Of a DNA stretch of 32,000 nucleotides, positions 2,123 through 31,722 are shown piece by piece. The DNA lies in assembly GCF_003072485.1 (NCBI RefSeq), contig NZ_CP025989.1, positions 330,001 through 362,000 of the forward strand, given 5' to 3'. Origin of the DNA: Candidatus Fokinia solitaria. Its GTDB lineage: Bacteria > Pseudomonadota > Alphaproteobacteria > Rickettsiales > Midichloriaceae. Position 1 is the stretch's first letter. The number at the start of each line of letters is the position of its first letter. A model generated the notes under the pieces. The model did not search any database, was not told the origin of the DNA, and was given only the letters and a program-made list of their open reading frames with translations. Both the position numbers and the translations under genes were made by a program.

Positions 2123-3103
2123 ATGCAAAACAAAGTACGCAACGCTATGGAAAAGAGATGGGCTTTTGAAGAAGCGGAAGCACTCTTTGCACTTCCGTTT
2201 AATCAGCTTATTTATGATGCACAAACAGTGCATAGACAGTATTTTTCTCCAAATGTTATTCAAATTAGTACGCTTTTGAGTATAAAAACTGGTGGCTGCA
2301 CTGAAGATTGTAAATATTGTCCGCAGTCGATGCATTATAATACTGGAGTAGAGAAGGGGCACTTGTTGAAGGTAAGCGATGTTGTAGAGGAAGCAAAAGA
2401 AGCAAAGAAGAAGGGTGCTAGTAGATTTTGTATGGGCGCTGCATGGAGAAGCTTACGAGATAAAGAAATGCCTGCAATCTGTGAGATGATAAGGGAAGTA
2501 AAAAAATTGGAGTTAGAAGTTTGTATGACATTAGGCCTGCTTAAGGAAGAGCAAGCGCTGCAATTGAAGGAAGCAGGGTTAGATTTCTATAATCACAATA
2601 TTGATACATCTGAAGAATTTTACGATAAAATTATCACAACAAGAGATTTTCAGAGTAGATTGAATACAATTGAATGTGTACGTAAGGCTGGTATCAAGAT
2701 TTGTTGCGGCGGCATTATAGGAATGGGCGAATCAAATGATGATCGCGTGAAGATGTTAGTTGTTTTAGCTAATTTTGATCAGCCACCTGAATCAGTGCCA
2801 ATAAATAAATTAATCAGAATTCCAGGCACACCTTTGGAGAATCAAAAGGAAGTAGATCCTTTTGATTTCGTAAGAACAATCGCGCTTGCGAGGATTATGA
2901 TGCCGAAGTCGTATGTTAGGCTATCTGCTGGTCGCGAGCAAATGTCGGATGAAATGCAAGCTTTATGCTTTCTTGCTGGTGCGAATTCTATTTTTTATGG
3001 TGAGAAGCTTTTGACTTCTGAGAATCCTACAATGCAGAGAGATGACGCTTTACTGCAGCGTTTAGGCCTTCGAAGCGCCGCAAGTAGTGTAATACATAAC
3101 TAA
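2123..3103 (+). CDS. bioB: biotin synthase
   Basis: 326 aa. It has the radical-SAM cluster motif [11 protein letters not shown] (CxxxCxxC), a downstream [12 protein letters not shown] segment and YNHNIDTS. It sits next to the other bio genes. Confidence 0.95.
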
Positions 3104-3206
3104 GTCTTCTTCCATTTAATTGCAAAAGAAGTATCAGAGTGAATGAAACTCATACAACTGTTTTGTGTTGAGTTTTGTAAAACTATTCTCGAAGAGGCGA
3201 TATAAA

Positions 3207-4502
3207 TTATCTGAATGAGTTAAGTACCTCACCAATCTTATCATAGGCATTTTCCAATTCTTTTTTCGATATACAGTATGGAGGTAGCAAATAAATTGTA
3301 TTTGAGAGTGGTCTTAGCAACAATCCTTCGCTGAGAAGTTTTGCGCTTATTGTAGGTACTAAATCTTTCGGTACTTTAACATCGAAAGCGGAAATTGTGC
3401 CTATGATTCGAGGTTTTTCTATCAATGCACATTGTTTTTTTAGAAATTTTATACCAGCATGATGTGTATCGTTGATATTTTGAATTGCTGCTTTGCATTC
3501 AGCTTTCATTAGTAAGTTGAACGATGCAATTGCTGCGCTACATGCTAGAGGATTAGCGGTATACGAATGACCATGCGCGAACGCTGTACTGAAATCATCT
3601 CCAAGAAATGCTTCGTATATGTTATCTCCAGTAATTGTCAAAGCAAGTGGAAGAAAACCTCCAGTAATCCCTTTTGAAAGGCATAGAAAATCCGGAGTGA
3701 TATCAGAAAGTTTTTCGAATGCGAAATGTGTCCCAGTTCTACCAAAGCCTGTCATCACCTCATCGAAGATGATTAGTATTTCGTTCTCACGTACTAGCTT
3801 TATGATATTTTGTAAAAATTCTACTCTACATACTCTCATACCACCTGCGCCTTGAATAAGTGGCTCCAATACAATAGCTGCAATTTTTCCTTTATATTGC
3901 TTTAAGTACTTCTGTAGCACTTTGATAGCTTGCGTTTCTTTTGCTTCAATTTCTCGATCATCGTCCCACGTATCGGCGTATGGTATAGCCAAAACTTTGA
4001 AAAACAGATCTTTAAATTGATCGTGAAAGCCGGATTTTTTTCCTACTGACATTGCGCCGAATGTATCACCGTGATATCCACCTTCAAAGCTGAGAAATAT
4101 ACTTTTGTCTCTATATCCTAAATTACGCCAGTACTGATAAGCCATCTTAATCGCAACCTCAACGGAAGTAGAGCCGTTATCTGAGAAAAAGAATTTTGCT
4201 AGTTTTAAAGGTAGTATTGTACGTAAGGATTTGCATAAATTAATTGCAGTTTCATGAGTGAAGCCTGCAAAAATAACGTGTTCTAAAGTTTTTGCTTGCT
4301 TGTATATACTATTTGCTATTTCCGCATTTGCATGACCATGAATGTTAACCCACCAGCTTGAAATGAGATCTAAGTAAGCTTTATCGTTTTGATCATAGAT
4401 ATAAGCACCTAAAGCTTTCTTAGCGCAAATTATATTTTTCGCTGTTCTTTCTTGCGTAAACGGATGCCATATCATTTCTTTATCAAGGTTGGAAAATATC
4501 AT
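3207..4502 (-). CDS. bioA: adenosylmethionine-8-amino-7-oxononanoate aminotransferase
   Basis: 431 aa, class-III aminotransferase. It has FDEVMTGFGRTG and the PLP-lysine context LSKGITGG. It overlaps bioD by 4 nt. Confidence 0.95.
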   Translation of the reverse strand: MIFSNLDKEMIWHPFTQERTAKNIICAKKALGAYIYDQNDKAYLDLISSWWVNIHGHANAEIANSIYKQAKTLEHVIFAGFTHETAINLCKSLRTILPLKLAKFFFSDNGSTSVEVAIKMAYQYWRNLGYRDKSIFLSFEGGYHGDTFGAMSVGKKSGFHDQFKDLFFKVLAIPYADTWDDDREIEAKETQAIKVLQKYLKQYKGKIAAIVLEPLIQGAGGMRVCRVEFLQNIIKLVRENEILIIFDEVMTGFGRTGTHFAFEKLSDITPDFLCLSKGITGGFLPLALTITGDNIYEAFLGDDFSTAFAHGHSYTANPLACSAAIASFNLLMKAECKAAIQNINDTHHAGIKFLKKQCALIEKPRIIGTISAFDVKVPKDLVPTISAKLLSEGLLLRPLSNTIYLLPPYCISKKELENAYDKIGEVLNSFR

Positions 4503-5119
4503 TGTGTATCTCTCAAAATTTTTACTAATCTTTCCGGAAGTGGAATATCTTTTAAAGTATTATAGCTAATTTTACTCAAGTATGGAAATTGCGCTATCAC
4601 TTGAGTCTTGCCATAAAATTCTATTGCTTCCATGTTTTCATTTTTATCTTCACCATTCATAATCACTCCAAGAATATCAATCTTTCTCGTTCTTAATGCC
4701 TCTATACAAAGTAAAGTATGATTGATAGTACCAAGTTTTGCACTTGTAACTATAATTACTGAGATATTTAGTTTTTTTATCAGATCGATCATGAGATACT
4801 CATCGTTGATTGGTACAAGTAATCCTCCTGCGCCTTCAACGATTAAATTCTCCTCTTGTGGTAAAATTATTTTATCAATATCAATGCGCTCATTTTCAAG
4901 TTTAGCAGCAAGATGTGGAGATAAAGCTTTTTTATACACAAATTTTTCTTGATGTATTTTACCTTGAGAGAGATTCTTTACAGTCATAGAATCTGTATTA
5001 CCCTCGCTTATTCCTGTCTGTATAGGCTTGAAGTATGTAGCATCCATATGCAAAGTAAGCCAAGATGAAATTACCGTCTTTCCTATGTCGGTATCTGTGC
5101 CGCATATAAATACTTTCAT
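4499..5119 (-). CDS. bioD: dethiobiotin synthase
   Basis: 206 aa. It has the N-terminal P-loop ICGTDTDIGKT and an EGAGGLLVP segment. It has 4-nt overlaps with both bioA and bioC. Confidence 0.9.
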   Translation of the reverse strand: MKVFICGTDTDIGKTVISSWLTLHMDATYFKPIQTGISEGNTDSMTVKNLSQGKIHQEKFVYKKALSPHLAAKLENERIDIDKIILPQEENLIVEGAGGLLVPINDEYLMIDLIKKLNISVIIVTSAKLGTINHTLLCIEALRTRKIDILGVIMNGEDKNENMEAIEFYGKTQVIAQFPYLSKISYNTLKDIPLPERLVKILRDTQ

Positions 5120-5871
5120 GTTATATTTTTTTTAAAGATTCCGAAAAATATCTTATAAGAGATGATAAGAGGGCGCTTTTGTTCGCGTATTAATGTTCTT
5201 AGTATGCGAAACGGTATTTGCCTGTGTGATGCTGAAGCACCTAATGCTTTAAGGTATCTAATAAATGATAGTACAGTATCAAACTTTATAGTTCTATTCA
5301 TGGTCCAGTATTGGAAACAGCAATGTCCTTTGATTGTATTGCAATATTCTGCAAGCGCTGTTTCTTTAGGGTAATTTTGAAGTACGGTATCGGTGTATAT
5401 GTTAATAATATTCTGCCATTCTCGAAATGTACCATCTAGTAATGTGGAAAATGCAAATATTTGAGAACTATTCAAATACAATGTTTGGATAGTTTTTTGT
5501 AAATCTTCTACCCATTGCAAAGCGAAATTACTTACTATCAGATCGTGCATATCGATATCTAATTCTGCCATATCACCTTGTATAAAGGTGCAATTCGGAT
5601 TTTTAATGAATTTTAGCCTGCATATATCAAGCATTCTTTCAGCGATGTCATTTAATGTGTAATGGCTTTGAGGATATACTTTCATTAATGATTCAGTCAT
5701 ATAGCCAGTACCAGTACCTAAATCTAAAACTGTTTTAGGAGTAAAATTCTGAATTTTTGATAATTTTTTTATTAGAAAATTTCCCGCTTTTCGCTGAATT
5801 ATGGCAACTAAATCATATGTTTTATCTGCGCTGTTGAAGCGCTCTTGCACTTTACCAGAGATAGAAGCCAT
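5116..5871 (-). CDS. bioC: malonyl-[ACP] O-methyltransferase
   Basis: 251 aa, class-I SAM methyltransferase with motif I VLDLGTGTGY. Its position between bioH and bioD supports the call. Confidence 0.8.
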   Translation of the reverse strand: MASISGKVQERFNSADKTYDLVAIIQRKAGNFLIKKLSKIQNFTPKTVLDLGTGTGYMTESLMKVYPQSHYTLNDIAERMLDICRLKFIKNPNCTFIQGDMAELDIDMHDLIVSNFALQWVEDLQKTIQTLYLNSSQIFAFSTLLDGTFREWQNIINIYTDTVLQNYPKETALAEYCNTIKGHCCFQYWTMNRTIKFDTVLSFIRYLKALGASASHRQIPFRILRTLIREQKRPLIISYKIFFGIFKKNIT

Positions 5872-6502
5872 CTAGAAATTTCATAATTTTTTCATAAACA
5901 GCTAATGGACTAGCGAGTCCAAGTATGTGTTCACCGTTATCTATCACATCTAATTTTATATTTGTGTTACTGAAATTATCATGTATAACTTGCGGCGGTA
6001 CCACCATATCATTATCCGATGCTAGAACAAGTGTAGGAACGGATGGTAGCACTATTGTACTGCGTAGTAAGTTTAGTTCAGTGCACATTAGATCGGAATT
6101 TAAATCTTCTTTATTAGGGCATTTGATCAATAATGAAGTGCTACATCTGCTATAAAAAAGATCTAATGCAATCATAGGATCAGTTCTAAATTTATTTTCC
6201 AACATCTTTAATTCTTTTTCCCTTTCTCTTCGTAATATAGGATGAAATCCTAGAAAATTTCTAAAACCGTTCAAAGCGATTAGGCGTTCAAAGTTTTTAT
6301 GTAACTCAAGTAGTTTCAATAATCCTAGAGAATGTCCTATACCTATGATTTTTTCATCATGAGGTATGTTGAAATGTGAAGGCCTTCTAAAATATCCTAA
6401 ATCTATAAAAGTGCATTTTTCTTTACTAAAACATGGTGCAATCTTATCCCAAAAACTTGCATCAAATCCGAAGCCATGACAGAAGACAAAATGGTAACTC
6501 AT
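5852..6502 (-). CDS. bioH: pimeloyl-[ACP] methyl ester esterase (alpha/beta hydrolase)
   Basis: 216 aa. It has an FCHGFG oxyanion-type motif and the nucleophile elbow GIGHSLG (GxSxG). It is embedded in the bio operon, overlapping bioC by 20 nt and bioF by 4 nt. Confidence 0.75.
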   Translation of the reverse strand: MSYHFVFCHGFGFDASFWDKIAPCFSKEKCTFIDLGYFRRPSHFNIPHDEKIIGIGHSLGLLKLLELHKNFERLIALNGFRNFLGFHPILRREREKELKMLENKFRTDPMIALDLFYSRCSTSLLIKCPNKEDLNSDLMCTELNLLRSTIVLPSVPTLVLASDNDMVVPPQVIHDNFSNTNIKLDVIDNGEHILGLASPLAVYEKIMKFLDGFYLW

Positions 6503-7653
6503 TGTATTATTTCTCTTAAGTAGTTTACTAACCTTTCTATATCTTGCAGTTGATGCTTCGATGTCAGTGCTATTCTTATACGAGAAGAATTATGCGGCAC
6601 TGTAGGAGGTCTTATACAGGATACTGTAATTTCTCGTTTCATCAATGCATCTTTGATTTGTAAGCAGATTTTTTCTTCTTTGAAAATAATAGGAACAATG
6701 TGAGTGGCAGATGTGCCAATATCAAATCCAAATTCTTGAAGTTTTGTACGTAATATAGTGCCGAGAGTTTGCAAATGAGTGCGTTCATTTTGTAAAGACT
6801 TCACCATTGTCCAAGCTTTTGAAGCAGAACCAATAATGTGCGGTGAAGGCGCGGTAGAGTATACAAAACCAGTTGCTTTGTTTATGAGAAAATCAATGAT
6901 CGTTTTATTACTTGCGATGTAGCCTCCGCTACTTCCTATTGCTTTACTCAATGTACCCATTATAACATGAGGAATATTATGTAATTGCACTGTAGTAGAG
7001 AGCCCATATCCATTTTTGCCGAATAAGCCAGTTGCATGCGCTTCGTCCAGATATAAGAATGCTTGATGCTTCGTCGCAAGTGCTGCTATTTCTTTTAAAG
7101 GCGCTATATCGCCGTCCATGCCGAAAAGCGTTTCTGTTACGATGAACTTCGGTCTTGAATCATTTTTGTAACTTTCCATAAGCGACTTTAAGTGTTCAAC
7201 GTCGTTATGATGATATCTGCATAACTCTGCTTTACTAAGAAATACTGCTTGATAAAGACTTGAATGATTCAGTTTATCAAAGAAAACTATCGCTTTTCCT
7301 CGTAAAACTTTTTCGTCGAGTAAACATGATAATGTGCTTATATTCGCTTGAAAACCTGAACTAAAAAGCAAACAGGATTCTGTATTTTTATCTCTTGCGA
7401 TGATTTTTTCAAATTCTTCGTATAACGGTAAGTTGCCAGATAATAACCTTGAACCAGTTGCGCCTACGCCGTATTTTCGAGCGCTGATTATAGCCGCTTC
7501 TATAACTTCACTGTTCTGACTTAGATTGAGATAGTCGTTTGTCGAGAAGTCCAGGAAATTAGTATGTTTCTCTTGTATATCTCGTGTATTTAAGATTCTG
7601 TAACGATTATCATTGCGTAAAGTTAGTAGATATTCTTCGTATGATTTATACAT
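6499..7653 (-). CDS. bioF: 8-amino-7-oxononanoate synthase
   Basis: 384 aa, alpha-oxoamine synthase. It has DEAHATGLFG and the PLP-lysine context GTLSKAIGSSGGY. It is the first gene of the minus-strand bio operon. Confidence 0.9.
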   Translation of the reverse strand: MYKSYEEYLLTLRNDNRYRILNTRDIQEKHTNFLDFSTNDYLNLSQNSEVIEAAIISARKYGVGATGSRLLSGNLPLYEEFEKIIARDKNTESCLLFSSGFQANISTLSCLLDEKVLRGKAIVFFDKLNHSSLYQAVFLSKAELCRYHHNDVEHLKSLMESYKNDSRPKFIVTETLFGMDGDIAPLKEIAALATKHQAFLYLDEAHATGLFGKNGYGLSTTVQLHNIPHVIMGTLSKAIGSSGGYIASNKTIIDFLINKATGFVYSTAPSPHIIGSASKAWTMVKSLQNERTHLQTLGTILRTKLQEFGFDIGTSATHIVPIIFKEEKICLQIKDALMKREITVSCIRPPTVPHNSSRIRIALTSKHQLQDIERLVNYLREIIQ

Positions 7654-7962
7654 TTTTAAGATGTTCTTAACTGAGCGAGAATAATTTTATGTTGCGGATA
7701 TTCAAATGAAGGGAACGATATGCGATTCTGAGGTATTTTGAATATAGGAACTACTGTAATGTATTAGAGAAAGAGATTATTACAAGCAATATAACCACAT
7801 TTGAGAGAAGAAATGATATAAGTAGTGATTATTTTATGATGGATCCTTGAATTTTCTGTAAAGAAAAAAAATCGTACTAAGCTATTAGTATTAATGTACT
7901 AGCTTTTACATAAAGCACAAGTTATTTTGAGAGAGTTTTATAAGAGAAATTAGCATGCTGTT

Positions 7963-9618
7963 ATGAGTAAAGAGAAGCAAGAAAAACATAAATTTACTGT
8001 GAAGTTACTTAAAGAAAAAAAGATAGCGAGAGATGCGGTAAAAGAAGCAAAATGCGAAGAATTGAAAGGCGAGACAAAAGAAAAATGTGAAAAATCTGAA
8101 GGGAGCTTCATATTCTATAAACGTAATTCAGATGAGAGCAACTTTGGTAAAAAACCTTGGTGGATTGACTATTTTGCTCTTGATAAAACGAAGTTTAAAC
8201 GTAATTTTGTCGAATCTTTATTAGTATTTGTCACGGTAAAAGATAAAGAAAAAGAAAGAATTTTTGCATATACGTTCGGTGTAGCTCGTTATTGGTTAAG
8301 GGAAGAATGTATAGAAAGCGATTTTGGATATAAAGTTGCTTTAAATACGATAGATCCTACAAAGATAAAAAGTGTAGATGCTCGTAGCCTAGAAGGTAAT
8401 GCAAAGGATAAAAGAGTAGTATTTAGCAAAGGTATGGATATAGAAGAGTATGATTGTAACAAATTTCTAGATTTTATTCATAGGATATCAGGAAAAGTTA
8501 AAGAGCAGTATAAGCATCTGTTCGATTCTGTGGCTGGATCAGAGAGCTTGATGATAACAGCTACAAAATCGAAAGATGAATTGATTGCACTTTCAAAAGA
8601 GCTTTTAGAGAGATTTGAGTCAGATGATTACAAAAATGATGATTCTTTGAAAGAAATAAATATGACTTACTCAGTTGCTGATATAGAAGTGACTGAAAGA
8701 CTTGATGAAGAATTGGGGAAATTACTCAAAAAAAGAGACTATAGTACAATGTCTTTCTCTGATGTAAAAATTCTTGATCCTGATATTTTTGAGTACTACT
8801 TATTTAATGGAAAGAAATATTATGATATGGAGGAGATTTTTGATGCATGGCGTGACATGCACGGATCGGTAGATTTTAGCTCAGCAGACGTGCTCGGTAA
8901 AGAGTTGCGAAAAACAATAACAGTATATACGAATGATGATAAAGAGCTTGACTCATGGAAGGTAAAACAATGTCTGAATGCTGATAATATTAAATTTGAT
9001 GACAATGAGTATATGTTCTTACGAAAGAAGTGGTATAAAGTAGATCGAGATTTTCTGTCGTATGTAGAAAAGGAAGTAAAAGAATATGAAATAAATGATG
9101 AGTGGATTAGAAACATTTTTGTAGATTATGACTCAGAAAAATATCAAAAGAAAGGTCAAGGACCTTTTGGAGAGCAGGAGTACAATATCGATTGCTGTAA
9201 TGCTAATTCAGAGCAGTTAGTATTATTCGACCGCAAGATGGTGCAATCCGAAAATCATGGCAAGATAGAGATCTGTGATGTTTATTGTAAGAGTACTAAA
9301 ACGTTTTTTCATATTAAGAAAGGAGAAAAAACAGCTCTAATGAGTCATTTATGGATTCAAGGACTTACATCTGCTTTCTGCTTGAATGCGGAAGATAAAA
9401 GGTATGTTAGTAAATTTAAGGAATGTACGAAGCTTTCTTCTTTTCCTTCACAATCTGAAATAAAGATATGTTATGCTATTATCAGTCATAAAAAAGCATT
9501 AGCTACACTCTCTAATTTTTCACTATATGCAGCAATTGGAAAATTTAAGGAGGCGGGTTTTAAAAAGGAGCAGGTAAAATATTTTTTCATTAATGAGATT
9601 AAAGCAAAAAAAAACTAA
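7963..9618 (+). CDS. TIGR04141 / DUF6119-like 'sporadically distributed' protein, function unknown
   Basis: 551 aa. The segment ERIFAYTFGVARYWLREECIESDFGYKVALNTIDPTKIKSVDARSLEG matches what I recall as the family core (RIFAxTFGxxRxLL...IExxFGxxVALNxIDxxxxxSxD). The C-terminal KIEICDVYCKSTKTFFHIKKGEKTALMSHLWIQGLTS resembles the ExCD...HxK...SHLxxQG tail. This is recognition by eye only. Confidence 0.6.
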   Translation: MSKEKQEKHKFTVKLLKEKKIARDAVKEAKCEELKGETKEKCEKSEGSFIFYKRNSDESNFGKKPWWIDYFALDKTKFKRNFVESLLVFVTVKDKEKERIFAYTFGVARYWLREECIESDFGYKVALNTIDPTKIKSVDARSLEGNAKDKRVVFSKGMDIEEYDCNKFLDFIHRISGKVKEQYKHLFDSVAGSESLMITATKSKDELIALSKELLERFESDDYKNDDSLKEINMTYSVADIEVTERLDEELGKLLKKRDYSTMSFSDVKILDPDIFEYYLFNGKKYYDMEEIFDAWRDMHGSVDFSSADVLGKELRKTITVYTNDDKELDSWKVKQCLNADNIKFDDNEYMFLRKKWYKVDRDFLSYVEKEVKEYEINDEWIRNIFVDYDSEKYQKKGQGPFGEQEYNIDCCNANSEQLVLFDRKMVQSENHGKIEICDVYCKSTKTFFHIKKGEKTALMSHLWIQGLTSAFCLNAEDKRYVSKFKECTKLSSFPSQSEIKICYAIISHKKALATLSNFSLYAAIGKFKEAGFKKEQVKYFFINEIKAKKN

Positions 9619-10113
9619 GCAATTGCCAGTGAATGTTTGAGAGGAAATATGTCAGAATGCTCAGATGCGCAAGAAGTGATGATGTAAATAGGTAGGTATC
9701 AGCGACACACCGGTGGATGCTGATGGACGGAGTTGATGAATCTAGAAAACAATTTTGATACTTTGTTGTTATGTTAGTTTTTTGAAATATCAAGATTTTC
9801 TCATCAAATATGTCAGGAAACATGTAAGGAAACATGTCAAAATGTCATACTGCACCTTTATAATTTGCCTCTTTTTTATTGAAGCGCACATCCTTTAGCA
9901 TAGTGACGAAAGCCTGTTTTCTTGAGAAGAGTAAAGTGTTTTTAATTGTCTAGCATAGCCTATTATTTTACATCAATTGTATTAGTATGAAGTGTTTTAC
10001 AGTAGTAAAAATATAGAAGTCGATTTTTTTACAGAATTGATACAAAAGCAGTTGCGTTTAAACTGTATGCAAGGTATTGTCGAGTAGTGATTTTGGCAAC
10101 GGATTGAATAAAA

Positions 10114-11148
10114 GTGGAAATGACTGATGGAGAAATAAAGACATTTGATGAGGCTATAACAATGGCTGGTGACAAAAAACATCTATTGTTAGGAAATGGC
10201 TTTAGCATTGAGTATGATGCAGAAATATTTTCATATGATAAAATCTGTGAATGTATTAATAAAAATGAGAAATTATTAGAAATTACTAAGAAATTAAATA
10301 CTACTAATATCGAGGAGATCATGAGAATCCTTGATAGATGTATTGATGTCATAACGATTATTAAACCTCAAGAAAAGGATAAGAAGGATGATCCAATCTG
10401 TGAAGAATTGAAGAAGATAAAAGATGAATTTAAGAGCGCTTTAGTTACTGCTATATTGAAACTTCATCCTCAAAATTATGATAAGAGATCAAGGCAATTG
10501 AAGTTAGATTGTGAAAGATTTCTTGCTAATTTCGATAGCATATATACTTTAAATTTTGATTTACTGTCATATTGGGCAATGCCTTTTCAAAAGTTTAAAG
10601 ATGGTTTTGTTGGTAAAGGGGAGGAACGGCTTTACTTTGCTTATTGGTGCGGGTGCAACATGAGATTTTTACATGGAGCGCTGCATTTGTTTCACGATAA
10701 AGTCGGTACATATAAAATAAGACGTTCAAATGACACTCCAGACTATTTACTTATGCAGATTGCGCGGCAGATAGAAGATGGAAATTTTCCGATATGTGTT
10801 ATAGATGGTTCTGCAGAGGGTAAAAGGAATGCGATTTATAAAAACGATTATCTAAGAACATCATATGAAAATTTAAGGAATCTTTCCGGCTCACTATTCA
10901 TATACGGATGCTCTTTAAGCCCGAACGATGATCATATTCTAGAGGCAATTGGTCAGAGTAATGTAGATAAAATTTTTATCAGCTTATTCGGTACTGCTAC
11001 AGCGGAAGGTTATGATGGAGCGATACGTAAAATCAAGGAAGTAAGGAAAGCAAAGCAAGAGCAGATGAAAGAGGAGAATAATCAGCAAAAAGAGCCGGAA
11101 TTTTACTTCTTCTCTGCGAAAAGTGCTAACGTTTGGGGTAAAAAATAA
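10114..11148 (+). CDS. DUF4917-like protein with SIR2-type motifs (putative NAD-utilising effector)
   Basis: 344 aa. It has HLLLGNGFSI (aa 23-32, a GxGxS start as in DUF4917/SIR2_2), IYTLNFDLL (aa 143-151), RFLHGALH (aa 184-191) and IYGCSLSPNDDHI (aa 263-275). This is the same motif order as SIR2_2-type proteins (GAGxS ... TTNYD ... LHG ... GxSxxD). The start could be M1, M3 or M17. Confidence 0.6.
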   Translation: MEMTDGEIKTFDEAITMAGDKKHLLLGNGFSIEYDAEIFSYDKICECINKNEKLLEITKKLNTTNIEEIMRILDRCIDVITIIKPQEKDKKDDPICEELKKIKDEFKSALVTAILKLHPQNYDKRSRQLKLDCERFLANFDSIYTLNFDLLSYWAMPFQKFKDGFVGKGEERLYFAYWCGCNMRFLHGALHLFHDKVGTYKIRRSNDTPDYLLMQIARQIEDGNFPICVIDGSAEGKRNAIYKNDYLRTSYENLRNLSGSLFIYGCSLSPNDDHILEAIGQSNVDKIFISLFGTATAEGYDGAIRKIKEVRKAKQEQMKEENNQQKEPEFYFFSAKSANVWGKK

Positions 11149-11157
11149 TGTAAATGC

Positions 11158-11445
11158 GTGATTATGAAGATAGAGATGATACCGGTAAGATCGAGCAATC
11201 TAAAAGAGATTGGATATGATCATAAGAATGAGCTTTTGATAATTATCTTTCACAAAGGCGATGCTTATCGTTATACCAATGTACCTTATGATACTTATAC
11301 GCAATTAATGAAAGGTGATCCTGATAATAACTCCATTGGCAAGTATTTTTGTGCGCATATTAGAACAAATCCTCAGTATCGATATAGCAAATTAAGAGAG
11401 AAGAGTTTCAAGGATCATGATGGAAAAAAATTCTATGTAGAGTAA
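11158..11445 (+). CDS. KTSC domain-containing small protein
   Basis: 95 aa. MIPVRSSNLKEIGYDHKNELLIIIFHKGDAYRYTNVPYDTYTQLMKG....SIGKYFCAHIR fits the KTSC pattern (V-SS-I-x-x-GYD...L-x-V-x-F-xG-x-Y-x-Y-x-VP...Y..L....S.G.YF...I). The ORF-track start is GTG at 11158; ATG at 11164 is equally plausible. The gap to the upstream gene is only 9-15 nt. Confidence 0.75.
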   Translation: MIMKIEMIPVRSSNLKEIGYDHKNELLIIIFHKGDAYRYTNVPYDTYTQLMKGDPDNNSIGKYFCAHIRTNPQYRYSKLREKSFKDHDGKKFYVE

Positions 11446-11525
11446 GAAGGCAAAGGTAATATAAAAGTTGAAAGAGTTTTTATTAATTTAAGTCTATACT
11501 GAATATTTATTAAATAAAATAGTAC

Positions 11526-13850
11526 ATGAAGCTCGATGTTACGCTAAAGCATTGTTATGGCATACAAAATTTGGAGAAAAAATTTGACTTTTCACAGTGC
11601 AGAACAGTTGTCATATACGCCTCCAACGCAGTTATGAAGACTTCTTTTGCTAGAACATTTTTGCAATTACAAGAAGAAAAAAGGCCTTCAGAAGAGATAT
11701 ATGGCTTAGAATCCGAATTTAATATTAAATTAAATGACAATGATATTAAAAGTAGCGATATCTTTGTTATTAAAACTTATAGAGAGAAATATGAATCTGA
11801 GAATATATCAAAATTACTTGTTGATGAAAAACGACAAAAAGAATACGAGGAAATATGGCAGAGCATTGCAAAAAATCAGACGTCACTAATGGTTGCTCTA
11901 AATAAATCTTCAGGCATAGAAAAGAGTAGATTAGAAAAAACGATACTATCTGATTTTAAAGATGATAGCGGTAATTTTCTTAAGTTCTTAGAGGGCATTA
12001 AGATTGACGAAATTACTGACAGCGACTGCAACTACGTTGATGTTAAATATTCTCTCATTTTCAATCAAAAAGTTGAGGAATTATTAAAAAATAAAGATGT
12101 TACTGATAATATAGAACGTTACACAAAGCAATACAATGAGCTATTAGACAAGTCACCATACTTTGATAGAACAAAGTTTAATCCATCGAAAGCAGATAGT
12201 GTACTTAAAACACTTGAAAAACAAAAATTCTTTGCTTCAGGGCATAAAGTAAAATTAAAGGGTAAAAAAATTCTGCTAGATAAAGTAGAGCTGCAGAAAG
12301 TGCTCGATGAAGCGAAAAAAGCAATTTTACAGGACTCAGAGTTAAAAAGAATACAAAATCTGATTACAGAAGGACAAGATGTAAAAGACTTCCAAGATTT
12401 ATTGGAAGAAACGCCTGAGATAATTAATGAATTATCTGATTTATCTTCTTTTAGAGAGAAGCTTTGGAAATCATATTTCAAAAAGGACGAGGAAAAATTC
12501 AGAAAATTAGTGGAAGAGTATCAGCAAAATAGAGAGAACTTAACACATATTGAGGATGCTGCTTCAAAGCAACTAACAACATGGAGTAAGGTTGTGGATA
12601 TTTTTCGAGAAAGATTTAAGGTGCCATTTGAATTAGAGATCAAAAATAAAAAGAGCGCAATCTTAGGAAGAGAGAAGCCGCATATTGCATTTATATTTAA
12701 AGATAAAAACGGACTGTCTAAGGAACTTAATAGAGATACACTTGAAGGTGCGAGTACTTTAAGTCAAGGTGAAAAAAGAGCGTTGTATTTATTGCAAATA
12801 ATTTTTGAAATAGAAAATAGAAAGCAGAGTAATACAAGAACGTTATTCATCATCGATGATATTGCTGATTCTTTTGATTATCAAAATAAGTATGCCATTA
12901 TAGAATACTTAAAAGAATTACATACAGAAGAGAATAATTTCTATCAAATCATTTTAACGCATAATTTTGATTTTTTTAGAACAGCTCAAGAAAGAATTTT
13001 AACAGATGAGAATAAAAGAACGCACTCTTTTATAGCGCAAAAGAATGATGATAGCATTTCACTTTTTGAAGCTGGTCACAGATATATTGTCAGTCCTTTT
13101 TCTTACTGGAAAACGCAGTTAAAAGGGGAAATAGGTGAGCGTGAGAGACATAAAATTCTAATAGCAATGATACCATTCATGCGAGAATTGCTGCATTATA
13201 TCAGCGCAGAGAAAGAACGTAACAGCGCTTCAACCGATAAAAAAGAGGAACGTAACGGCACTTCAACTGGTGAAAAGAAAGATTGTAATAGCGCTTCAAT
13301 CGATAAAAAAGAGGAACGTAACGACACTTCAACCGATAAAAAAGAAGAATATTGCCGCACTTTAACTGCTCTACTACATGTGAAGTCTGAGACAAAAAAT
13401 CTTAAATTTTGCGATTTAAATGATATATATAAAGATCTGTTCGATATAGCTTTAACCAAAGAAGATAAAGATATTTGTATATTTGACGCATTGTGTGCTG
13501 CTGCTGATGATATTAGCGAGAGAGAAAATGATAGCGCTTTAAATCTTGAAAATAAAATTATACTCTCAATTGCTGCAAGATTGATGGCAGAATATTATAT
13601 GGAATCTCGTGACATATCACTGAAAGATAAGATAGGACAGACGTTTAATCGTTTTAAGAAAAAGTATGAAAAAGATGAAGCGACTCCATTCCTTGAAAGG
13701 GTTGTAATTATGACGCCAGAAAACATACATTTAAACTCTTTTATGTATGAGCCAATTCTTGATATGTCTGAACAACATTTAAAAAAGTTGTATAAGGATG
13801 TACGCGAATTGTATAAATCAATTTCGAGTACACCTGCTACAACATTTTGA
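11526..13850 (+). CDS. ABC/SMC-type ATPase of the AAA_13 (PrrC/RloC-like) kind, with coiled-coil insert, degenerate Walker A and C-terminal extension
   Basis: 774 aa. It has the signature motif LSQGEKRALYLL (aa 412-423), Walker B LFIIDDIADSFD (aa 440-451) and an H-loop-like IILTHNFDFFR (aa 475-485). About 370 K/E-rich residues separate the N-terminal nucleotide-binding half (VIYASNAVMKTS, aa 28-40) from the signature motif, as in Rad50/SMC-like ATPases. The ~290-aa C-terminal region has no motif I recognise. Confidence 0.65.
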   Translation: MKLDVTLKHCYGIQNLEKKFDFSQCRTVVIYASNAVMKTSFARTFLQLQEEKRPSEEIYGLESEFNIKLNDNDIKSSDIFVIKTYREKYESENISKLLVDEKRQKEYEEIWQSIAKNQTSLMVALNKSSGIEKSRLEKTILSDFKDDSGNFLKFLEGIKIDEITDSDCNYVDVKYSLIFNQKVEELLKNKDVTDNIERYTKQYNELLDKSPYFDRTKFNPSKADSVLKTLEKQKFFASGHKVKLKGKKILLDKVELQKVLDEAKKAILQDSELKRIQNLITEGQDVKDFQDLLEETPEIINELSDLSSFREKLWKSYFKKDEEKFRKLVEEYQQNRENLTHIEDAASKQLTTWSKVVDIFRERFKVPFELEIKNKKSAILGREKPHIAFIFKDKNGLSKELNRDTLEGASTLSQGEKRALYLLQIIFEIENRKQSNTRTLFIIDDIADSFDYQNKYAIIEYLKELHTEENNFYQIILTHNFDFFRTAQERILTDENKRTHSFIAQKNDDSISLFEAGHRYIVSPFSYWKTQLKGEIGERERHKILIAMIPFMRELLHYISAEKERNSASTDKKEERNGTSTGEKKDCNSASIDKKEERNDTSTDKKEEYCRTLTALLHVKSETKNLKFCDLNDIYKDLFDIALTKEDKDICIFDALCAAADDISERENDSALNLENKIILSIAARLMAEYYMESRDISLKDKIGQTFNRFKKKYEKDEATPFLERVVIMTPENIHLNSFMYEPILDMSEQHLKKLYKDVRELYKSISSTPATTF
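13215..13346 (+). repeat. four imperfect in-frame tandem repeats (33/36/30/33 nt) inside the ATPase gene
   Basis: The units are gaacgtaacagcgcttcaaccgataaaaaagag / gaacgtaacggcacttcaactggtgaaaagaaagat / tgtaatagcgcttcaatcgataaaaaagag / gaacgtaacgacacttcaaccgataaaaaagaa. They encode ERNSASTDKKE-ERNGTSTGEKKD-CNSASIDKKE-ERNDTSTDKKE. Confidence 0.9.
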
Positions 13851-13864
13851 AAGAAATTGCCTTT

Positions 13865-14413
13865 TTAAAAAGTATCATCTAGTCTTTTACTGAGAGCTAT
13901 AATATGCTCCGGTCTCCTATGATGTTCGCACATAAAAATATAAATATCCTTTAATAGATTTTCGCACATTTGAACGAGATCTTTTGTCCAAAGTGCTCGT
14001 TCGTATGGTGGTGCGCTCTTTTCCTGATTTTGAATGTGAATTCTATTACGAATTTCAGCAACTTTATAGATGCGCTCGTGTACTTCAGGTATGCTTAACA
14101 AGTCATACTTTTTACAGATATCACTGAAATTTTTTAATTTATTTGGAAGACTGATATCGCGTATTTTGCTGAGTGCTTTTGGCTCAAGAGTAATATTCAT
14201 GAATTCGTGTCGGTGCTTTGCAACCCTACATAAAAAATCATATAAACAACATTCAATAATGCTACTTATAATCAAGAAGATTGGCTTATAATATAAGGGT
14301 TTCTTCTCATTTATCATCGAAGTTACTATTTGCAAGTTATGATTGACATTATTTTTTCTATTAAAGTCCCAGAAAAACGTACTTGAATGCTCTTTGAGTT
14401 CAGATATTTTCAT
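13865..14413 (-). CDS. hypothetical protein, predicted all-helical, with a HEPN-reminiscent C-terminal helix
   Basis: 182-aa ORF convergent with the ATPase gene, with a 14-nt gap between the stops. It has no recognisable family. The helix pair IISSIIECCLYDFLCRV ... YKVAEIRNRIHIQN is HEPN-like, but the R-to-H spacing is one residue shorter than the canonical Rx4-6H. Confidence 0.5.
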   Translation of the reverse strand: MKISELKEHSSTFFWDFNRKNNVNHNLQIVTSMINEKKPLYYKPIFLIISSIIECCLYDFLCRVAKHRHEFMNITLEPKALSKIRDISLPNKLKNFSDICKKYDLLSIPEVHERIYKVAEIRNRIHIQNQEKSAPPYERALWTKDLVQMCENLLKDIYIFMCEHHRRPEHIIALSKRLDDTF

Positions 14414-14751
14414 AAAATCTTACAGTCGTGCTTTTTTATCAAATATGATCATGTATAATGACAATTCGAAAAGTATTCAATAGCGTCTAAGATACTCTTT
14501 TTATTAAAAATTCGTACTCTATACTTTAACTTTCTGTTTTTTATACAAATCTATAAAATATTCATCATAGAAAAAATCTATAATATATATCTTCACGTGA
14601 AGTATGCGCATCTCCGAAATTAAGGAGAAGACTTTAGACAATGAAATGATACTCTTAAAGATAGGCAGAGTATTAGATTGATGTTACGATAGAGTAAAAA
14701 TTAGCGTCTCAAAGAACATTCACGACGCAAAAGACGAGAGAGATCGTATGC

Positions 14752-14841
14752 TGGCGGAGAAAGAGGGATTCGAACCCTCGATACGGTCACCCGTATACTT
14801 TCTTAGCAGGAAAGCGCCTTCGACCACTCGGCCATTTCTCC
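14752..14841 (-). tRNA. tRNA-Ser (anticodon GCU), CCA encoded
   Basis: The reverse complement reads GGAGAAA-TG-GCC-GAGTGGTCGAA-GGC-G-CTTTC-CTGCTAA-GAAAG-TATACGGGTGACCGTATC-GAGGG-TTCGAAT-CCCTC-TTTCTCC-G-CCA. It has a 7-bp acceptor stem, a 5-bp anticodon stem, the loop CU-GCU-AA, a long variable arm (ATACGG/CCGTAT) typical of class II tRNAs, and a canonical T-loop. Confidence 0.92.
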
Positions 14842-15126
14842 GTCACACCATATAATCGGCGATGAGCGACGAAAAAGCAATAACTTTAATGCTGAAAAGC
14901 GTATCGAGAAGAGGCGAGTTACACGTCACCACTTTTTATTACTTTTTCTGTTGAAATTATCATTTTGTCGCACATTGTATTTGCAGTACAAAGCGCTGAT
15001 GCGTCACAGTGTAATTCTTCGCTTTATGTAAGATGGTGTCATTCTTCGTCGATACAGAGCAGTATAGTGCCGCTTATGCGGAAGATATTTGTGCGGCATT
15101 TGTGCGGTATTTATATCTTTTTCTTT

Positions 15127-15510
15127 CTTATACATCGCGATCTTTCTTCTTTCTTATATATCGAAATACTTACACATCGTAATCTTCTTTCTTACTTATA
15201 TGCTATAATCTTTCTTTTTCTCGAAGCAAAGAGGTAGATGCAGAAGATCGAAATACTTACACATCGTAATCTTCTTTCTTACTTATATGCCATAATCTTT
15301 CTTTTTTCTCGAAGCAAAGAGGTAGATGCAGAAGATCGAAATACTTACACATCGTAATCTTCTTTCTTACTTATATGCTACAATCTTTCTTTTTCTCGAA
15401 GCAAAGAGGTAGATGCAGAAGATCGAAATACTTACACATCGTAATCTTCTTTCTTACTTATATGCTATAATCTTTCTTTTTCTCGAAGCAAAGAGGTAGA
15501 TGCAGCAGAA
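15127..15510. repeat. noncoding tandem repeat array, 87/88-nt unit, 4 near-identical copies plus a degenerate partial copy
   Basis: Unit starts (tcgaaatacttacacatcg...) are at 15161, 15248, 15336 and 15423, giving periods of 87, 88 and 87. A degenerate partial copy lies at about 15127-15160. Hand translation of a unit finds stop codons in all six frames. Confidence 0.95.
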
Positions 15511-30200: not shown

Positions 30201-30510
30201 CCCAACCGAGCTTAAATATGACTTTTTTACCTAGCATTGTATGATATCGTACGAAGCAATCTTTAATATACGATGTTAGTATGTGTCCCCAGTGAGGCAT
30301 GCCATTCGCAAATGGAGGACCATCATGAAAAGCAATTTCATCACCGTCTTTATTTAGCACAAGAGAACTTATCTGATTTTCTTGCCAGTATTTTTGGATT
30401 TGTTTTTCAATTTCGGAAAAATTACTGTGTAACGATAAATCCGAAAATGCCGTAACGGTATCTAAGTGAACGATATCGATATTATTGTTTTTAGAAGTGG
30501 ATTTTCTCAT
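27271..30510 (-). CDS. ileS: isoleucine--tRNA ligase (type 2, eukaryote-like form)
   Basis: 1079 aa. It has the HIGH-type motif PFANGMPHWGHILT, the KMSKS-type motif KLSKRLQNFPDP, and a class-Ia editing-domain-sized insertion. Confidence 0.93.
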   Translation of the reverse strand: MRKSTSKNNNIDIVHLDTVTAFSDLSLHSNFSEIEKQIQKYWQENQISSLVLNKDGDEIAFHDGPPFANGMPHWGHILTSYIKDCFVRYHTMLGKKVIFKLGWDCHGLPAELEAEKELNIIGKAQIEDLGIQKFNDHCSKSVLKYTDEWLQYFSKSARWLRSNEEYKTMDISYMQSVIWCFKKLYADDLIYKASRIMPYSWKCETPISDFETRLDNSYREKESKAVTVLFEVVESDYLFSLVGKNKRIALLAWTTTPWTLTSNLLLAVNQDIVYAIVEHESTIFIISEVLLPKYAEEVGNDIICTVLGKDLIGIQYKPLFQYFTNEQNAFKVVHGDFVTIENGTGIVHIAPGFGEDDHNLAKLYNVNPVCPIDDGCKFTFPVTDYVGRQVFDTEIDIIKALKIKNAWLKTEQYFHSYPHCWRTDTPLIYRAVPSWYLAVTQIKEKMLKLNQHIKWHPSHIQNGLFGKWLENARDWSISRTRYWGCPIPVWESDDPRYPHVEVYGSIEEIEKSFGIKVTNLHRPFIDSLTKINPSDPTGKSRLVRVKEVFDCWFESGAMPFAQYGHPFTDTASHFTAEFVVEYAAQTRGWFYTMLVLATALFNTVPFKNCIAHGVVLGTDGKKLSKRLQNFPDPLKTLEKLGSDAVRLFMLSSQAIKGEDIVIDSDVTGAINIIKGVVKPLWSTYNFLMLYLKIDQVTPRNIDTAHSLLNRYILQKLLKTWIIIKNAMENYDTAICIQEVASFLEVLNNWYVRRSRHIFWQSGYNAQKEEAFNTLYTVLFTLCKILAPLAPTLSEAIYLGLSEIDGNYQKSVHLEEYPELSQFEISESLISNMERVRLACNNALAIRNEQKIRIRQPLKCVTFIGVSDFEFSNEMREIILDEINVKEWINADKTEIVQYADLVFKLNLPTLGKTRPQHVKQILSAFKKKDFSYTKNSLIVGGVTLNEGEFQKALEIKEKYKNVAKVLSDGVVILDTSLSQELIDEGIARDLVRFIQQSRKEENLEITQKIRINVLLRENVQQISDIVARFKTYILTTTLATEAEVSSIMSDVTSNKFEIDISSLDGRVDVINIQIVIHKV

Positions 30511-30694
30511 CTATATTTTAAGACGCATTCTATAGCGAACGACATTGTACTGTATAGACTGAAAATCATCAATAAAAGTGTGTTTTAAGCAGTATCATAT
30601 GCGTTATATGATTTGCTGAGAAGTTTTAAATAAGCTACGTATCGCTTGCTGTTTCAAACCAGCAAGTGATACATATTGCGCGTGTTCGTAAGAA

Positions 30695-31318: not shown

Positions 31319-31722
31319 TGAGCCGCATCAGATGGTTATGGATAAATGAGCGCATGACCGCCAAGTTATGATGTTGGTACATGAATTTCGCTAAATGCGT
31401 ATGACTGTGGCGAAGTGAGCCGCATGAGGATGGTTATGCATGAAGAGCGCATGAGCCGCCAAGTGAGGATGTTGTACATGAAGTTCGCCAAGTGCGGATG
31501 ACTGTGGAGGAAATGAGCTAAATGAGGATGGTTATGCATGAAATGAGCTGCATGAGCCGCCAAGTGAGGATGTTGGTACATGAAGTGCGCCAAGTGCGGA
31601 TGACTGTGGAGGAAATGAGCTAAATGAGGGTGATTATGCATGAAATGAGCTGCATGAGCCGCCAAGTGAGGATGTTGGTACATGAAGTGTGCTAAATGCG
31701 GATGACTGTGGAGGAAATGATG
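31061..31722. repeat. 102-nt (34-codon) tandem repeat array of the His-rich gene, interrupted by the G-rich tract
   Basis: The landmark gccgccaagtgagg recurs at 31107, 31455, 31556 and 31658, with a degenerate gaccgccaagttatg at 31356. The spacings from the right are 102, 101, 99 and then 249 across the insert. Confidence 0.9.
31143..31316 (+). other. G-run-rich, C-poor tract replacing part of one repeat unit
   Basis: Runs of 3-5 G lie at 31197-31201, 31210-13, 31217-20, 31226-28, 31235-38, 31247-50, 31259-62, 31274-76 and 31284-86. The flanks on both sides resume the His-repeat sequence. Confidence 0.85.

Follow-up and report, generated by a model that had tools for sequence, protein, structure and literature searches.

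The window analysed here is a 32,000 nt stretch of the Candidatus Fokinia solitaria genome. ORF calling on the window revealed three intact ORFs on the + strand between positions 10114 and 13850. Gene 1 (10114..11148, +) encodes a DUF4917 protein of 344 aa from a GTG start, gene 2 (11158..11445, +) a 95 aa protein with a Pfam KTSC domain, and gene 3 (11526..13850, +) a 774 aa split ABC ATPase that contains a coiled-coil insert and ends in a helical C-domain. In GenBank, gene 1 starts at an ATG at 10120 (342 aa) and gene 2 at an ATG at 11164 (93 aa). The gap between genes 1 and 2 is 9 or 15 nt and that between genes 2 and 3 is 80 nt, placing the KTSC gene nearer to gene 1 than to gene 3. In view of the close KTSC-gene 1 spacing and the common strand, genes 1-3 are likely to be co-transcribed. 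The intact ORFs, strand, gaps and motif order given for the trio in the initial annotation were all borne out by the ORF list, and the reduced, endosymbiont-type genome that it had guessed at was indeed the 837 kb genome of Ca. Fokinia solitaria, Fokinia being an obligate intracellular symbiont (PMC5905368).

The three genes lie within an island of ~7 kb flanked by the biotin operon and tRNA-Ser(GCU). The leftmost gene, g0 (7963..9618, +), encodes a 551 aa DUF6119 / TIGR04141 'sporadically distributed' protein, which matched Pfam DUF6119 (9e-100), NCBIfam TIGR04141 (4.8e-77) and phrog_18579 (1e-18) and had no PADLOC match; none of the 160 gene 1- and gene 3-anchored loci contained a homologue. 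The right edge is formed by g4 (13865..14413, -), a convergent orphan ORF of 182 aa with no match in Pfam, PADLOC, NCBIfam or PHROGs; the loci fetched for genes 1 and 3 contained no homologue either. The length of g4 is 182 aa in GenBank and 111 aa in RefSeq. The tRNA-Ser(GCU) gene (14752..14841, -), detected by ARAGORN and Rfam (tRNA, 61 bits), provides the right boundary, with its 3' end towards the island. A search for att-like direct repeats or an integrase at the island found none, and its GC, GC3 and codon usage were the same as those of housekeeping genes. Such host-like composition indicates long residence without decay, and the recent acquisition suggested earlier was thus not upheld.

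Domain content and conserved residues of genes 1 and 3

Analysis of gene 1 revealed a Pfam DUF4917 domain (134 bits, cut-off 28) and a match to PADLOC PDC-S21 (5.5e-82), with residues 4-342 aligned to profile positions 2-335 of 336. The protein is divergent, showing at most 37% identity to any relative found. The best PDB match of its AF2 model (pLDDT 85) was the Sir2 of SIR2-HerA (E 1e-8, TM about 0.5). SIR2_2 was matched by 30 of 35 gene 1 family members and AbiH by 19 of 35, and hhalign of the family with HerA-linked SIR2 gave a probability of 88% (E 2.9e-6). The motifs occur in the order GNGFS, LNFD, FLHG and GCSLSPNDD. GNGFS (residues 27-31; 10192..10206, +), the Rossmann GxG dinucleotide-binding motif, aligned with GAGAS of the HerA-linked SIR2; N147-F-D149 of LNFD (10552..10560, +), carrying the predicted catalytic Asn, aligned with its TNYD motif; and H187 of FLHGAL (10672..10674, +), the predicted catalytic His, with its LHGS. 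GNGFS, N147, D149 and H187 were invariant in 35 homologues, and gene 1 retained 38 of 38 family-invariant residues. Invariant residues, AF2 fold and hhalign thus agree in supporting the earlier assignment of gene 1 to the SIR2 superfamily, as a putative NADase whose catalytic positions are occupied by N147 and H187. Relatives of gene 1 are often found within type I R-M operons, a setting shared by PrrC, with HsdS, HsdR and HsdM accounting for 12, 8 and 5 of 150 neighbours, respectively. The closest relatives are located in Qat/AbiH/Mrr islands.

Gene 3 matched Pfam AAA_13 (46 bits, cut-off 36; 3.6e-12), PADLOC PDC-S46 (1.4e-225) and phrog_38705 (1e-130), with a sub-threshold match to SMC_N. 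The head of its AF2 model (pLDDT 81) resembles SMC, Rad50, RecF and PtuA. The deviant Walker A (A32-S-N-A-V-M37-K38-T39-S40; 11619..11645, +) forms a strand-loop-helix in the model. A32, N34, M37, K38, T39 and S40 were invariant in 36 homologues, and residue 35, which is Gly in at least 90% of homologues, is Ala in Fokinia (G35A). The C-terminal half of the ABC head (12759..12968, +) carries the signature LSQGE (412-416), Walker B IIDD (442-445) and H-loop TH479N, in which S413, G415, E416, D444, D445 and H479 were invariant in 36 homologues. Walker A and signature are separated by ~370 residues, as estimated in the initial annotation, and Pfam, PADLOC and the model concur with its view of gene 3 as a split ABC ATPase that is AAA_13 (PrrC/RloC)-like and not LmuB.

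The C-terminal extension, earlier put at ~290 aa, was found to be ~255 aa long (residues 519-774; 13080..13847, +), including a 44-aa repeat insertion present only in Fokinia. This all-helical, family-specific C-domain carries an invariant R685-x3-E689-x45-H735, has no Pfam or PDB sequence match and is confined to the C-terminus of this ATPase family (937 clusters). Homologues from many phyla, and on 29 plasmids, align over the full length, and gene 3 is conserved as a single polypeptide that includes the C-domain and keeps every family-invariant residue. The insertion, a 33-nt x 4.2 in-frame tandem repeat identified by TRF (13213..13349, +), occurs in none of 35 aligned homologues and falls in a disordered loop (pLDDT <50 at residues 572-598 of the AF2 model). 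The closest relatives (55-58% identity) are flanked by rlmH and dapD-type housekeeping genes, and neighbours of gene 3 homologues show no dominant family, R-M, nSTAND3, Pycsar-type TIR and Schlafen being among them. PDC-S46 proteins are in places annotated 'phage infection protein'.

Genomic contexts of the three families and readings of the island

Co-occurrence of genes 1 and 3 was checked in the best 80 loci per scan, together with viral, plasmid and closest-relative loci. No gene 3 homologue was present within ~8 kb of gene 1 homologues (0/115 loci; 80 genome, 31 viral, 4 closest-relative), and no gene 1 homologue near gene 3 homologues (0/~104 loci; 80 metagenome, 13 viral, 7 closest-relative, 4 plasmid). 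The upper 95% bound on co-occurrence for this sample is ~3%. Neither gene is accompanied by the other in its nearest relatives, and both families are predominantly solitary. They are already catalogued separately as the single-gene defence candidates PDC-S21 and PDC-S46, PADLOC PDCs being single- or multi-gene candidates found by their embedding in R-M, BREX and DISARM systems. The statement in the initial annotation that no sequence signature pointed to a named system therefore needs correction, and its trio as a conserved system, for which co-occurrence had been set beforehand as the test, was not supported as regards genes 1 and 3 in the sampled loci.

Pfam confirmed gene 2 as a KTSC protein (55 bits, cut-off 25; 6.4e-15); three PHROG families also matched, and no close relative was found in the word-indexed database. 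Its relatives (37-45% identity) adjoin gene 3 homologues and also HerA. KTSC abuts gene 3 homologues at loci L088, L092 and L115, with 3 of 141 immediate gene 3 neighbours being KTSC genes compared with 1 among 1682 other genes, a modest enrichment (p=0.0017); this adjacency is rare (~3% of loci) and variable in orientation. No SIR2-like gene is present at these three loci, and KTSC abutted DUF4917 in 0 of 155. At other loci, the KTSC cistron trails HerA in SIR2-HerA and E1 genes in E2-E1 operons. SIR2-HerA-KTSC operons with overlapping cistrons occur on Sulfitobacter and Rhizobium plasmids and at L102, and the top-scoring KTSC relative of gene 2 (55 bits) is HerA-linked. KTSC sequences did not cluster by partner. 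KTSC is a promiscuous small cistron, possibly serving the ATPase, gene 3; if gene 2 has a partner in Fokinia, gene 3 is likelier than gene 1.

Since genes 1 and 3 are separate in the sampled loci, a small endosymbiont defence island is likelier than a new three-part machine. We consider that 7654-14751 is probably a small defence-type chromosomal island of independent modules, not one three-gene machine. The defence or conflict character of the neighbourhood claimed in the initial annotation was supported, and its three-gene system found only partial support; the SIR2/ATPase/KTSC precedent and the modest enrichment of KTSC beside gene 3 homologues speak for it. Gene 1 would be one module, a stand-alone SIR2-superfamily enzyme which, when triggered, may hydrolyse NAD+ via N147 and H187 and so abort infection, by analogy with ThsA, DSR and SIR2-HerA. 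Gene 3 would be the other, its SMC/Rad50-like ABC head, split by the coiled coil, controlling the helical C-domain, and might act as an RloC-like sensor-plus-RNase (anticodon nuclease) without a zinc hook. Gene 2 would be a small accessory cistron, tied elsewhere to the NTP-using component in several conflict systems (HerA in SIR2-HerA, ThiF/E1 or the gene 3 family).

Alternatively, the trio could be a Nezha-like (SIR2-HerA-like) system with an ABC/SMC-type ATPase in the place of HerA. The ATPase, with the KTSC protein, KTSC being reportedly DNA-binding, would then sense foreign DNA and switch on the SIR2-like NADase. The single strand and tight spacing, the best structural match and profile-level kinship of gene 1, and the HerA-linked KTSC relative are consistent with such a system. 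The SIR2-HerA-KTSC operons of Sulfitobacter, Rhizobium and L102 give this logic a real precedent, so a functional trio keeps a small probability; variants of HerA with KTSC and an endoDNase replacing the sirtuin have also been noted by the Aravind lab. However, the families of genes 1 and 3 were together in 0 of ~220 loci, closest relatives included, and are mostly solitary, single-gene candidates; gene 3 has its own conserved putative effector domain, and KTSC-gene 3 pairs elsewhere lack a SIR2-like gene. On balance, such a system is unlikely. It is quite improbable that the genes are inert remnants of an old horizontally acquired island, undegraded as yet and functionless in Fokinia. We know of no Fokinia phage, gene 3 carries the P-loop G35A and the repeat expansion, g4 is an orphan with inconsistent annotations, and integrase and att site were not found; yet the four large ORFs are all intact despite strong pressure for genome reduction, genes 1 and 3 keep all their invariant residues (38 in gene 1), the composition is fully host-like and the gene 3 insertion is confined to a disordered loop. 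Campylobacter jejuni SliP, the only experimentally studied DUF4917 protein, is reported to be a secreted NAD+-dependent deacetylase that acts on host histones (PMC10421069), and the intracellular life of Fokinia (PMC5905368) makes host manipulation a plausible selective reason to retain gene 1 in an 837 kb genome; but that gene 1, perhaps with its neighbours, is a secreted sirtuin-like effector against the Paramecium host and not phages is very improbable, as the family occurs in free-living bacteria of soil and water, in an archaeon and in prophages, is found inside type I R-M operons and in defence islands and matches AbiH and SIR2_2, and as the neighbours PDC-S46, KTSC and DUF6119 are of mobile or defence type.

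Comparison with known systems

Gene 1 is a full-length match to PDC-S21, and the type I R-M embedding of its relatives is the PDC-defining criterion; in contrast, the Fokinia copy is very divergent and lies outside any R-M system. Gene 3 shares with PDC-S46 the full-length architecture and all family-invariant residues, but differs in the 44-aa repeat insertion, the P-loop G35A and the upstream KTSC gene (~3% of relatives). In structure, gene 1 is nearest to the Sir2 of SIR2-HerA / Nezha (E 1e-8), and the two align at the GxG, N-x-D and H motifs; both the SIR2-HerA-KTSC variant and the Fokinia trio combine a SIR2-type gene with KTSC and ATPase genes. However, the ATPase is HerA/FtsK-type in the former and ABC/SMC-type in the latter, the gene order is SIR2-HerA-KTSC as against SIR2-KTSC-ATPase, and the DUF4917 and PDC-S46 families were not together in the sampled loci elsewhere. 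C. jejuni SliP, compared by description, has the Pfam family DUF4917 and a sirtuin-like fold in common with gene 1, but is a reported host-directed deacetylase, whereas the contexts of gene 1 relatives point to defence. Lamassu/DdmABC follows a similar logic of effector gene, SMC-like ATPase and small third gene, but gene 3 is AAA_13-like with its own C-domain, and the PADLOC models of LmuA, LmuB and LmuC gave no match at E<=0.1.

Gene 3 resembles RloC and PrrC in passing AAA_13, in the coiled-coil insert that splits the ABC head and in the helical C-domain that follows. It differs in having no CxxC zinc hook, in its deviant Walker A, with Met replacing Gly, in the residue before the His, which is Ile and not Ser, and in a C-domain without detectable Pfam or PDB sequence match. 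R685-x3-E689-x45-H735 obeys the R-X3-E-X36-52-H rule of the RloC ACNase (PMC2610378), and these residues lie at nearly the same positions as R692/E696/H737 of G. kaustophilus RloC. Judged by architecture and motif pattern, the C-domain of gene 3 may thus be RloC-like and a putative RNase (anticodon nuclease).

Gene layout and distribution of the gene families

Three ORFs were found on the forward strand at exactly the positions named in the initial annotation: gene 1 (10114-11148, 344 aa), gene 2 (11158-11445, 95 aa) and gene 3 (11526-13850, 774 aa). Gene 2 follows gene 1 after 9 nt (15 nt when counted from the annotated ATG starts) and gene 3 begins after a further gap of 80 nt. The motifs GNGFS, LNFD, FLHG and GCSLSPNDD were present in this order in gene 1, the Pfam domains DUF4917, KTSC and AAA_13 were all matched, and about 370 residues separated Walker A from the ABC signature in gene 3. 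The agreement of ORF positions, gaps, motifs and Pfam matches confirmed the description made from the sequence, with one correction: the C-terminal extension of gene 3, put at ~290 aa, measures ~255 aa.

These genes had been proposed to form an uncharacterised three-gene defence or conflict system. We collected 115 loci around gene 1 homologues (the best 80 genome loci, 31 viral or prophage contigs and 4 contigs of the closest relatives) and ~104 loci around gene 3 homologues (the best 80 metagenome loci, 13 viral contigs, 7 contigs of the closest relatives and 4 plasmids), and searched six-frame ORFs of all loci with HMMs of both families. A gene 3 homologue was found within ~8 kb of a gene 1 homologue at none of the 115 loci, and a gene 1 homologue at none of the ~104 gene 3 loci, the upper 95% bound on co-occurrence being ~3%. 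KTSC genes were likewise absent from the 155 neighbours of gene 1 homologues. The initial annotation had named lack of co-occurrence as a refutation of its own proposal, and this is what was found for the gene 1/gene 3 pair. A conserved three-gene system does not hold up, with families 1 and 3 never together and KTSC never beside gene 1 homologues at the loci collected, and the main claim to novelty therefore falls. The region of genes 1-3 is instead probably a defence-type island of independent modules. Gene 1 would act as one module, a stand-alone SIR2-type putative NADase listed by PADLOC as the single-gene phage defence candidate PDC-S21, and gene 3 would act as another, a stand-alone RloC-like ATPase-effector listed as PDC-S46. 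The KTSC protein would be an accessory and, if it serves anything here, would more likely serve the ATPase than gene 1.

The two families keep different company. The closest relatives of gene 1 are found in islands that also carry Qat genes, AbiH, Mrr, PycTM and an integrase, and its homologues are often found inside type I R-M operons (HsdS in 12, HsdR in 8 and HsdM in 5 of 150 immediate neighbours, by Pfam). DUF4917 genes also occur beside complete SIR2-HerA systems in Bdellovibrio and Pedobacter genomes (loci L017, 5232-9044, and L012, 8001-14585), and one family of 340-371 aa flanks DUF4917 at both of these loci and at L061. The closest relatives of gene 3 (55-58% identity) are flanked by rlmH- and dapD-type housekeeping genes. 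No partner dominates among gene 3 homologues, the neighbours of which include R-M, nSTAND3, Pycsar-type TIR, Schlafen and DUF2130 genes (Pfam). At L162 (8001-10873), as well as at L163 and L164, a DUF3800 gene comes 2 nt after a gene 3 homologue of 49% identity, on a mobile element that also carries resolvase, NikA-like, SSB, BrnT/BrnA and Phd toxin-antitoxin genes.

KTSC contexts and a possible joint system

Gene 2 matched Pfam KTSC with 55.1 bits (cut-off 25) over profile positions 2-56 of 58. A word-indexed search with the Fokinia KTSC returned itself only, with no close relative, and KTSC homologues were gathered instead with tblastn and by iterating jackhmmer over the fetched loci. KTSC genes adjoined gene 3 homologues on three independent contigs, lying 3 nt upstream at L115, 116 nt upstream at L088 and 18 nt downstream at L092. 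Among the immediate neighbours of gene 3 homologues KTSC accounts for 3 of 141, against 1 of the 1682 other genes that were mapped (p=0.0017, Fisher test). None of the three loci carried a SIR2-like gene; the remaining neighbours were a UDG-family gene, Mrr-nSTAND3 and a hydrolase.

Searches that started from KTSC revealed relatives carried by plasmids and by many phages. KTSC is the third, overlapping cistron of SIR2-HerA operons on Sulfitobacter and Rhizobium etli plasmids (PADLOC SIR2 5e-182, HerA 6e-159). Operons of the SIR2-HerA-KTSC type lie at L220 (1973-5210), L221 (1985-5210) and L102 (13485-15274), the KTSC gene at L102 beginning 2 nt after the HerA gene (E 2e-124). PADLOC has no model for this variant of three genes and gives no match for KTSC. 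KTSC is attached to a ubiquitin-like conjugation operon too: on a Halorubrum plasmid (L222, 669-3701) genes for E2/UBC, a ThiF/E1 adenylyltransferase and KTSC stand in series, KTSC overlapping E1 by 4 nt. In Agrobacterium it trails a truncated ATP-binding gene, and in a phage-like Bacillus plasmid it stands alone. When KTSC sequences were grouped by partner type, no clustering signal was seen in such short sequences. The domain has been described by the Aravind laboratory as DNA-binding and coupled to HerA-like ATPases. Given its contexts beside HerA, E1/ThiF and gene 3 homologues, KTSC behaves like an accessory that promiscuously joins the NTP-using component in several conflict systems. Its recurrence with this component in at least three of them (HerA, E1/ThiF, PDC-S46) points to an adaptor role, and the picture that emerges is of a plug-in partner for immune systems driven by an ATPase or by adenylation.

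Such an adaptor could also make a working unit of the three Fokinia genes, a reading that we regard as unlikely. The DUF4917 NADase would then be governed, through KTSC as DNA-binding adaptor, by the RloC-like ABC ATPase, giving an analogue of Nezha (SIR2-HerA-KTSC) with its motor swapped and with an NADase and a putative RNase under one sensor. In its favour, SIR2-HerA-KTSC operons show that components of this kind can form a unit, the Sir2 protein of SIR2-HerA is the nearest structural relative of gene 1, and the KTSC gene lies only 9-15 nt from gene 1 in Fokinia. Against it, genes 1 and 3 never co-occurred at the other loci collected, and a putative effector is already built into gene 3. 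If this hybrid were real, immune systems driven by an ATPase would have in KTSC a plug-in adaptor of general use.

The probable island and its retention in a reduced genome

Candidatus Fokinia solitaria is a Rickettsiales (Midichloriaceae) endosymbiont of Paramecium (PMC5905368) with a genome of 837,348 bp. Upstream of genes 1-3 and on the same strand lies g0 (7963-9618), a 551-aa gene of the DUF6119/TIGR04141 'sporadically distributed' family (Pfam and NCBIfam). Its further matches are a PHROG of unknown function and, at a weak E of 0.04, DUF3800, and it is probably another mobile or defence gene. On the other side is g4 (13865-14413, reverse strand), an orphan ORF convergent with gene 3 across a 15-nt gap, which matched no family in four libraries and is annotated with 182 aa in GenBank vs 111 aa in RefSeq. 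No homologue of g0 or g4 was present in any fetched gene 1 or gene 3 locus, so that neither appears as a partner. Next comes a tRNA-Ser(GCU) at 14752-14841, its 3' end pointing to the block (tRNA and Rfam scans); it was the sole match of the Rfam scan. With g0, g4 and tRNA-Ser around the trio, a biotin operon to the left, and iscA-like, surA-like and transporter genes to the right, the block at ~7654-14751 looks like an island within housekeeping DNA.

The biotin synthesis gene set directly left of the island (2123-7653) is complete and forms a compact operon within a genome that is very reduced: bioB on the forward strand, then bioA, bioD, a bioC-like methyltransferase gene, a 216-aa ORF without Pfam match and bioF on the reverse strand. 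Just right of the tRNA, an intergenic 87-nt unit is repeated in tandem in 4.0 near-perfect copies (97%; 15160-15509). At the right end of the window (30500-32000), GC rises up to ~0.42 and GC skew is strongly positive, with no Rfam family at threshold.

Recent acquisition, one of two explanations first offered for the intact genes, found no support. The island genes cannot be told apart from the flanking housekeeping genes by GC, GC3 or codon usage, and a search of the island for an integrase and for a direct repeat of att type matching the 3' end of tRNA-Ser found neither. Four long genes of one strand, rich in K, E, N and I, coincide with the strong GC skew at 7.5-13.5 kb, which is taken to reflect the coding-strand composition of those genes. 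Promoter-like sites in 7500-15000 (26 vs 35 in shuffles) and terminators, which were at background, were uninformative on operon structure.

The island could also consist of inert remnants. We consider this very unlikely, because, in a strongly reduced genome, the ORFs are intact, all family-invariant residues are kept and the composition is host-like. A defence-type island, intact and fully ameliorated, is unusual in so reduced a genome as that of this 837-kb obligate ciliate endosymbiont. Its retention suggests pressure from phages or mobile elements, or that the genes were re-used against the host.

Genes 1 and 3 in relation to known systems

Gene 1 matched Pfam DUF4917 with 134.1 bits (cut-off 28) and PADLOC PDC-S21 over its full length (5.5e-82, profile positions 2-335 of 336). 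An alignment of 34 homologues (30-37% identity) from many bacterial phyla and one archaeon revealed invariant residues H23, G27-N-G-F-S31, N147, D149, H187, G188, D272 and H274 (34-35 homologues). The top 25 PDB matches of its AlphaFold (AF2) model (pLDDT 85, pTM 0.86) were led by Sir2 of SIR2-HerA/Nezha (E to 1e-8, TM ~0.5), followed by human SIRT2/3, Sir2Tm and DSR2. Pfam SIR2_2 was reached by 30 of 35 family members and AbiH by 19 of 35; the divergent Fokinia protein, searched alone, reached neither. Full-length profiles of genes 1 and 3 gave marginal SMC matches or noise only against PDB sequences. With hhalign, the gene 1 profile aligned to four HerA-linked SIR2 proteins with a probability of 88% (E 2.9e-6), pairing GNGFS with GAGAS, LNFD with TNYD and FLHGAL with KLHGSL. 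This alignment supports N147 and H187, both invariant, as the predicted catalytic residues suspected from the outset. Sequence and model together point to a stand-alone putative NADase of SIR2 type. A host-directed role is suggested by the sole DUF4917 protein studied, SliP of C. jejuni, which is reported to be a secreted deacetylase of sirtuin type (PMC10421069), and is in our view very unlikely.

Gene 3 matched PADLOC PDC-S46 over the full length (1.4e-225, 749 bits), in two stretches split by a Fokinia-specific insertion, and Pfam AAA_13 with 46.2 bits (cut-off 36), SMC_N remaining sub-threshold. The insertion, a lineage-specific, K/E/S/T-rich stretch of 44 aa (residues ~567-610), arises from 4.2 in-frame copies of a 33-nt repeat (13213-13349), is absent from all 35 aligned homologues and is predicted to form a disordered loop. 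Homologues of 710-740 aa, aligned over the whole length including the C-terminal region, were found in Bacteroidota, Pseudomonadota, Cyanobacteria and other groups, as well as on 29 plasmids, and their annotation goes no further than 'AAA family ATPase' or 'phage infection protein'. Invariant in the family are the signature LSxGE, the DD of Walker B and the H-loop His. Walker A is deviant throughout PDC-S46 (A-x-N-G-x-M-K-T-S in the family alignment), an invariant Met replacing the canonical Gly before Lys; in Fokinia (11619-11645, forward strand, residues 32-40) it also carries G35A. In the model (pLDDT 81), the ABC head matched those of SMC, Rad50, RecF and retron/Septu PtuA by Foldseek; the ~370 residues before the signature are mostly helical, and the SMC/Rad50 heads matched are ones with coiled coils. 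The C-domain is all-helical in the model; R685-x3-E689 and H735 are among its many invariant polar residues. An exhaustive search (937 clusters at 50% identity) found it only C-terminal in this ATPase family, and a representative search gave no other architecture. For the C-domain, scanning 16 members against Pfam at E<=5 yielded only scattered single matches, and a PDB profile search none.

PADLOC lists the two families separately, among 145 candidates obtained by 'guilt-by-embedding' in BREX, DISARM and type I R-M, although no assignable signature had at first been seen. Genes 1 and 3 are very divergent new members of these already catalogued candidate families. The literature held nothing specific on PDC-S21, PDC-S46 or DUF6119. 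PDC-S46, a widespread candidate, gains a mechanistic hypothesis: an RloC-like protein without zinc hook, with the triad R685/E689/H735 and a Met P-loop.

With its SIR2 fold (model), GxG motif, and Asn and His at equivalent positions, gene 1 belongs to the SIR2 superfamily of NAD-binding Rossmann enzymes. In contrast to ThsA, which joins SIR2 to SLOG and has a TIR partner, gene 1 is a single domain of 344 aa and g0-g4 have no SLOG or TIR match; DSR1-DSR2 differ by a C-terminal sensor of ~1000 aa or more. In SIR2-HerA (Nezha) a HerA/FtsK-type ATPase (DUF87) stands beside SIR2, whereas gene 3 is of ABC/SMC type without DUF87/HerA match, in a PADLOC library that scores a true HerA partner at 6e-159. 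No Lamassu model was among the PADLOC matches at E<=0.1 for any of g0-g4, and the original view of gene 3 as AAA_13-like rather than LmuB-like is borne out by this and by the AAA_13 score above cut-off. The CxxC zinc hook of RloC is missing from gene 3: residues 41-411 contain no CxxC, nor does the family consensus. Because of this, and because the C-domains are linked by a motif pattern, we describe gene 3 as RloC-like, by motif and architecture, and do not assign it to RloC. Like gene 3, RloC is an ABC ATPase of the AAA_13 family that a coiled coil splits, and R685-x3-E689...H735 fits as a motif pattern the RloC/PrrC anticodon-nuclease rule Arg-X3-Glu-X36-52-His (PMC2610378), at nearly the same positions as R692/E696/H737 of G. 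kaustophilus RloC.
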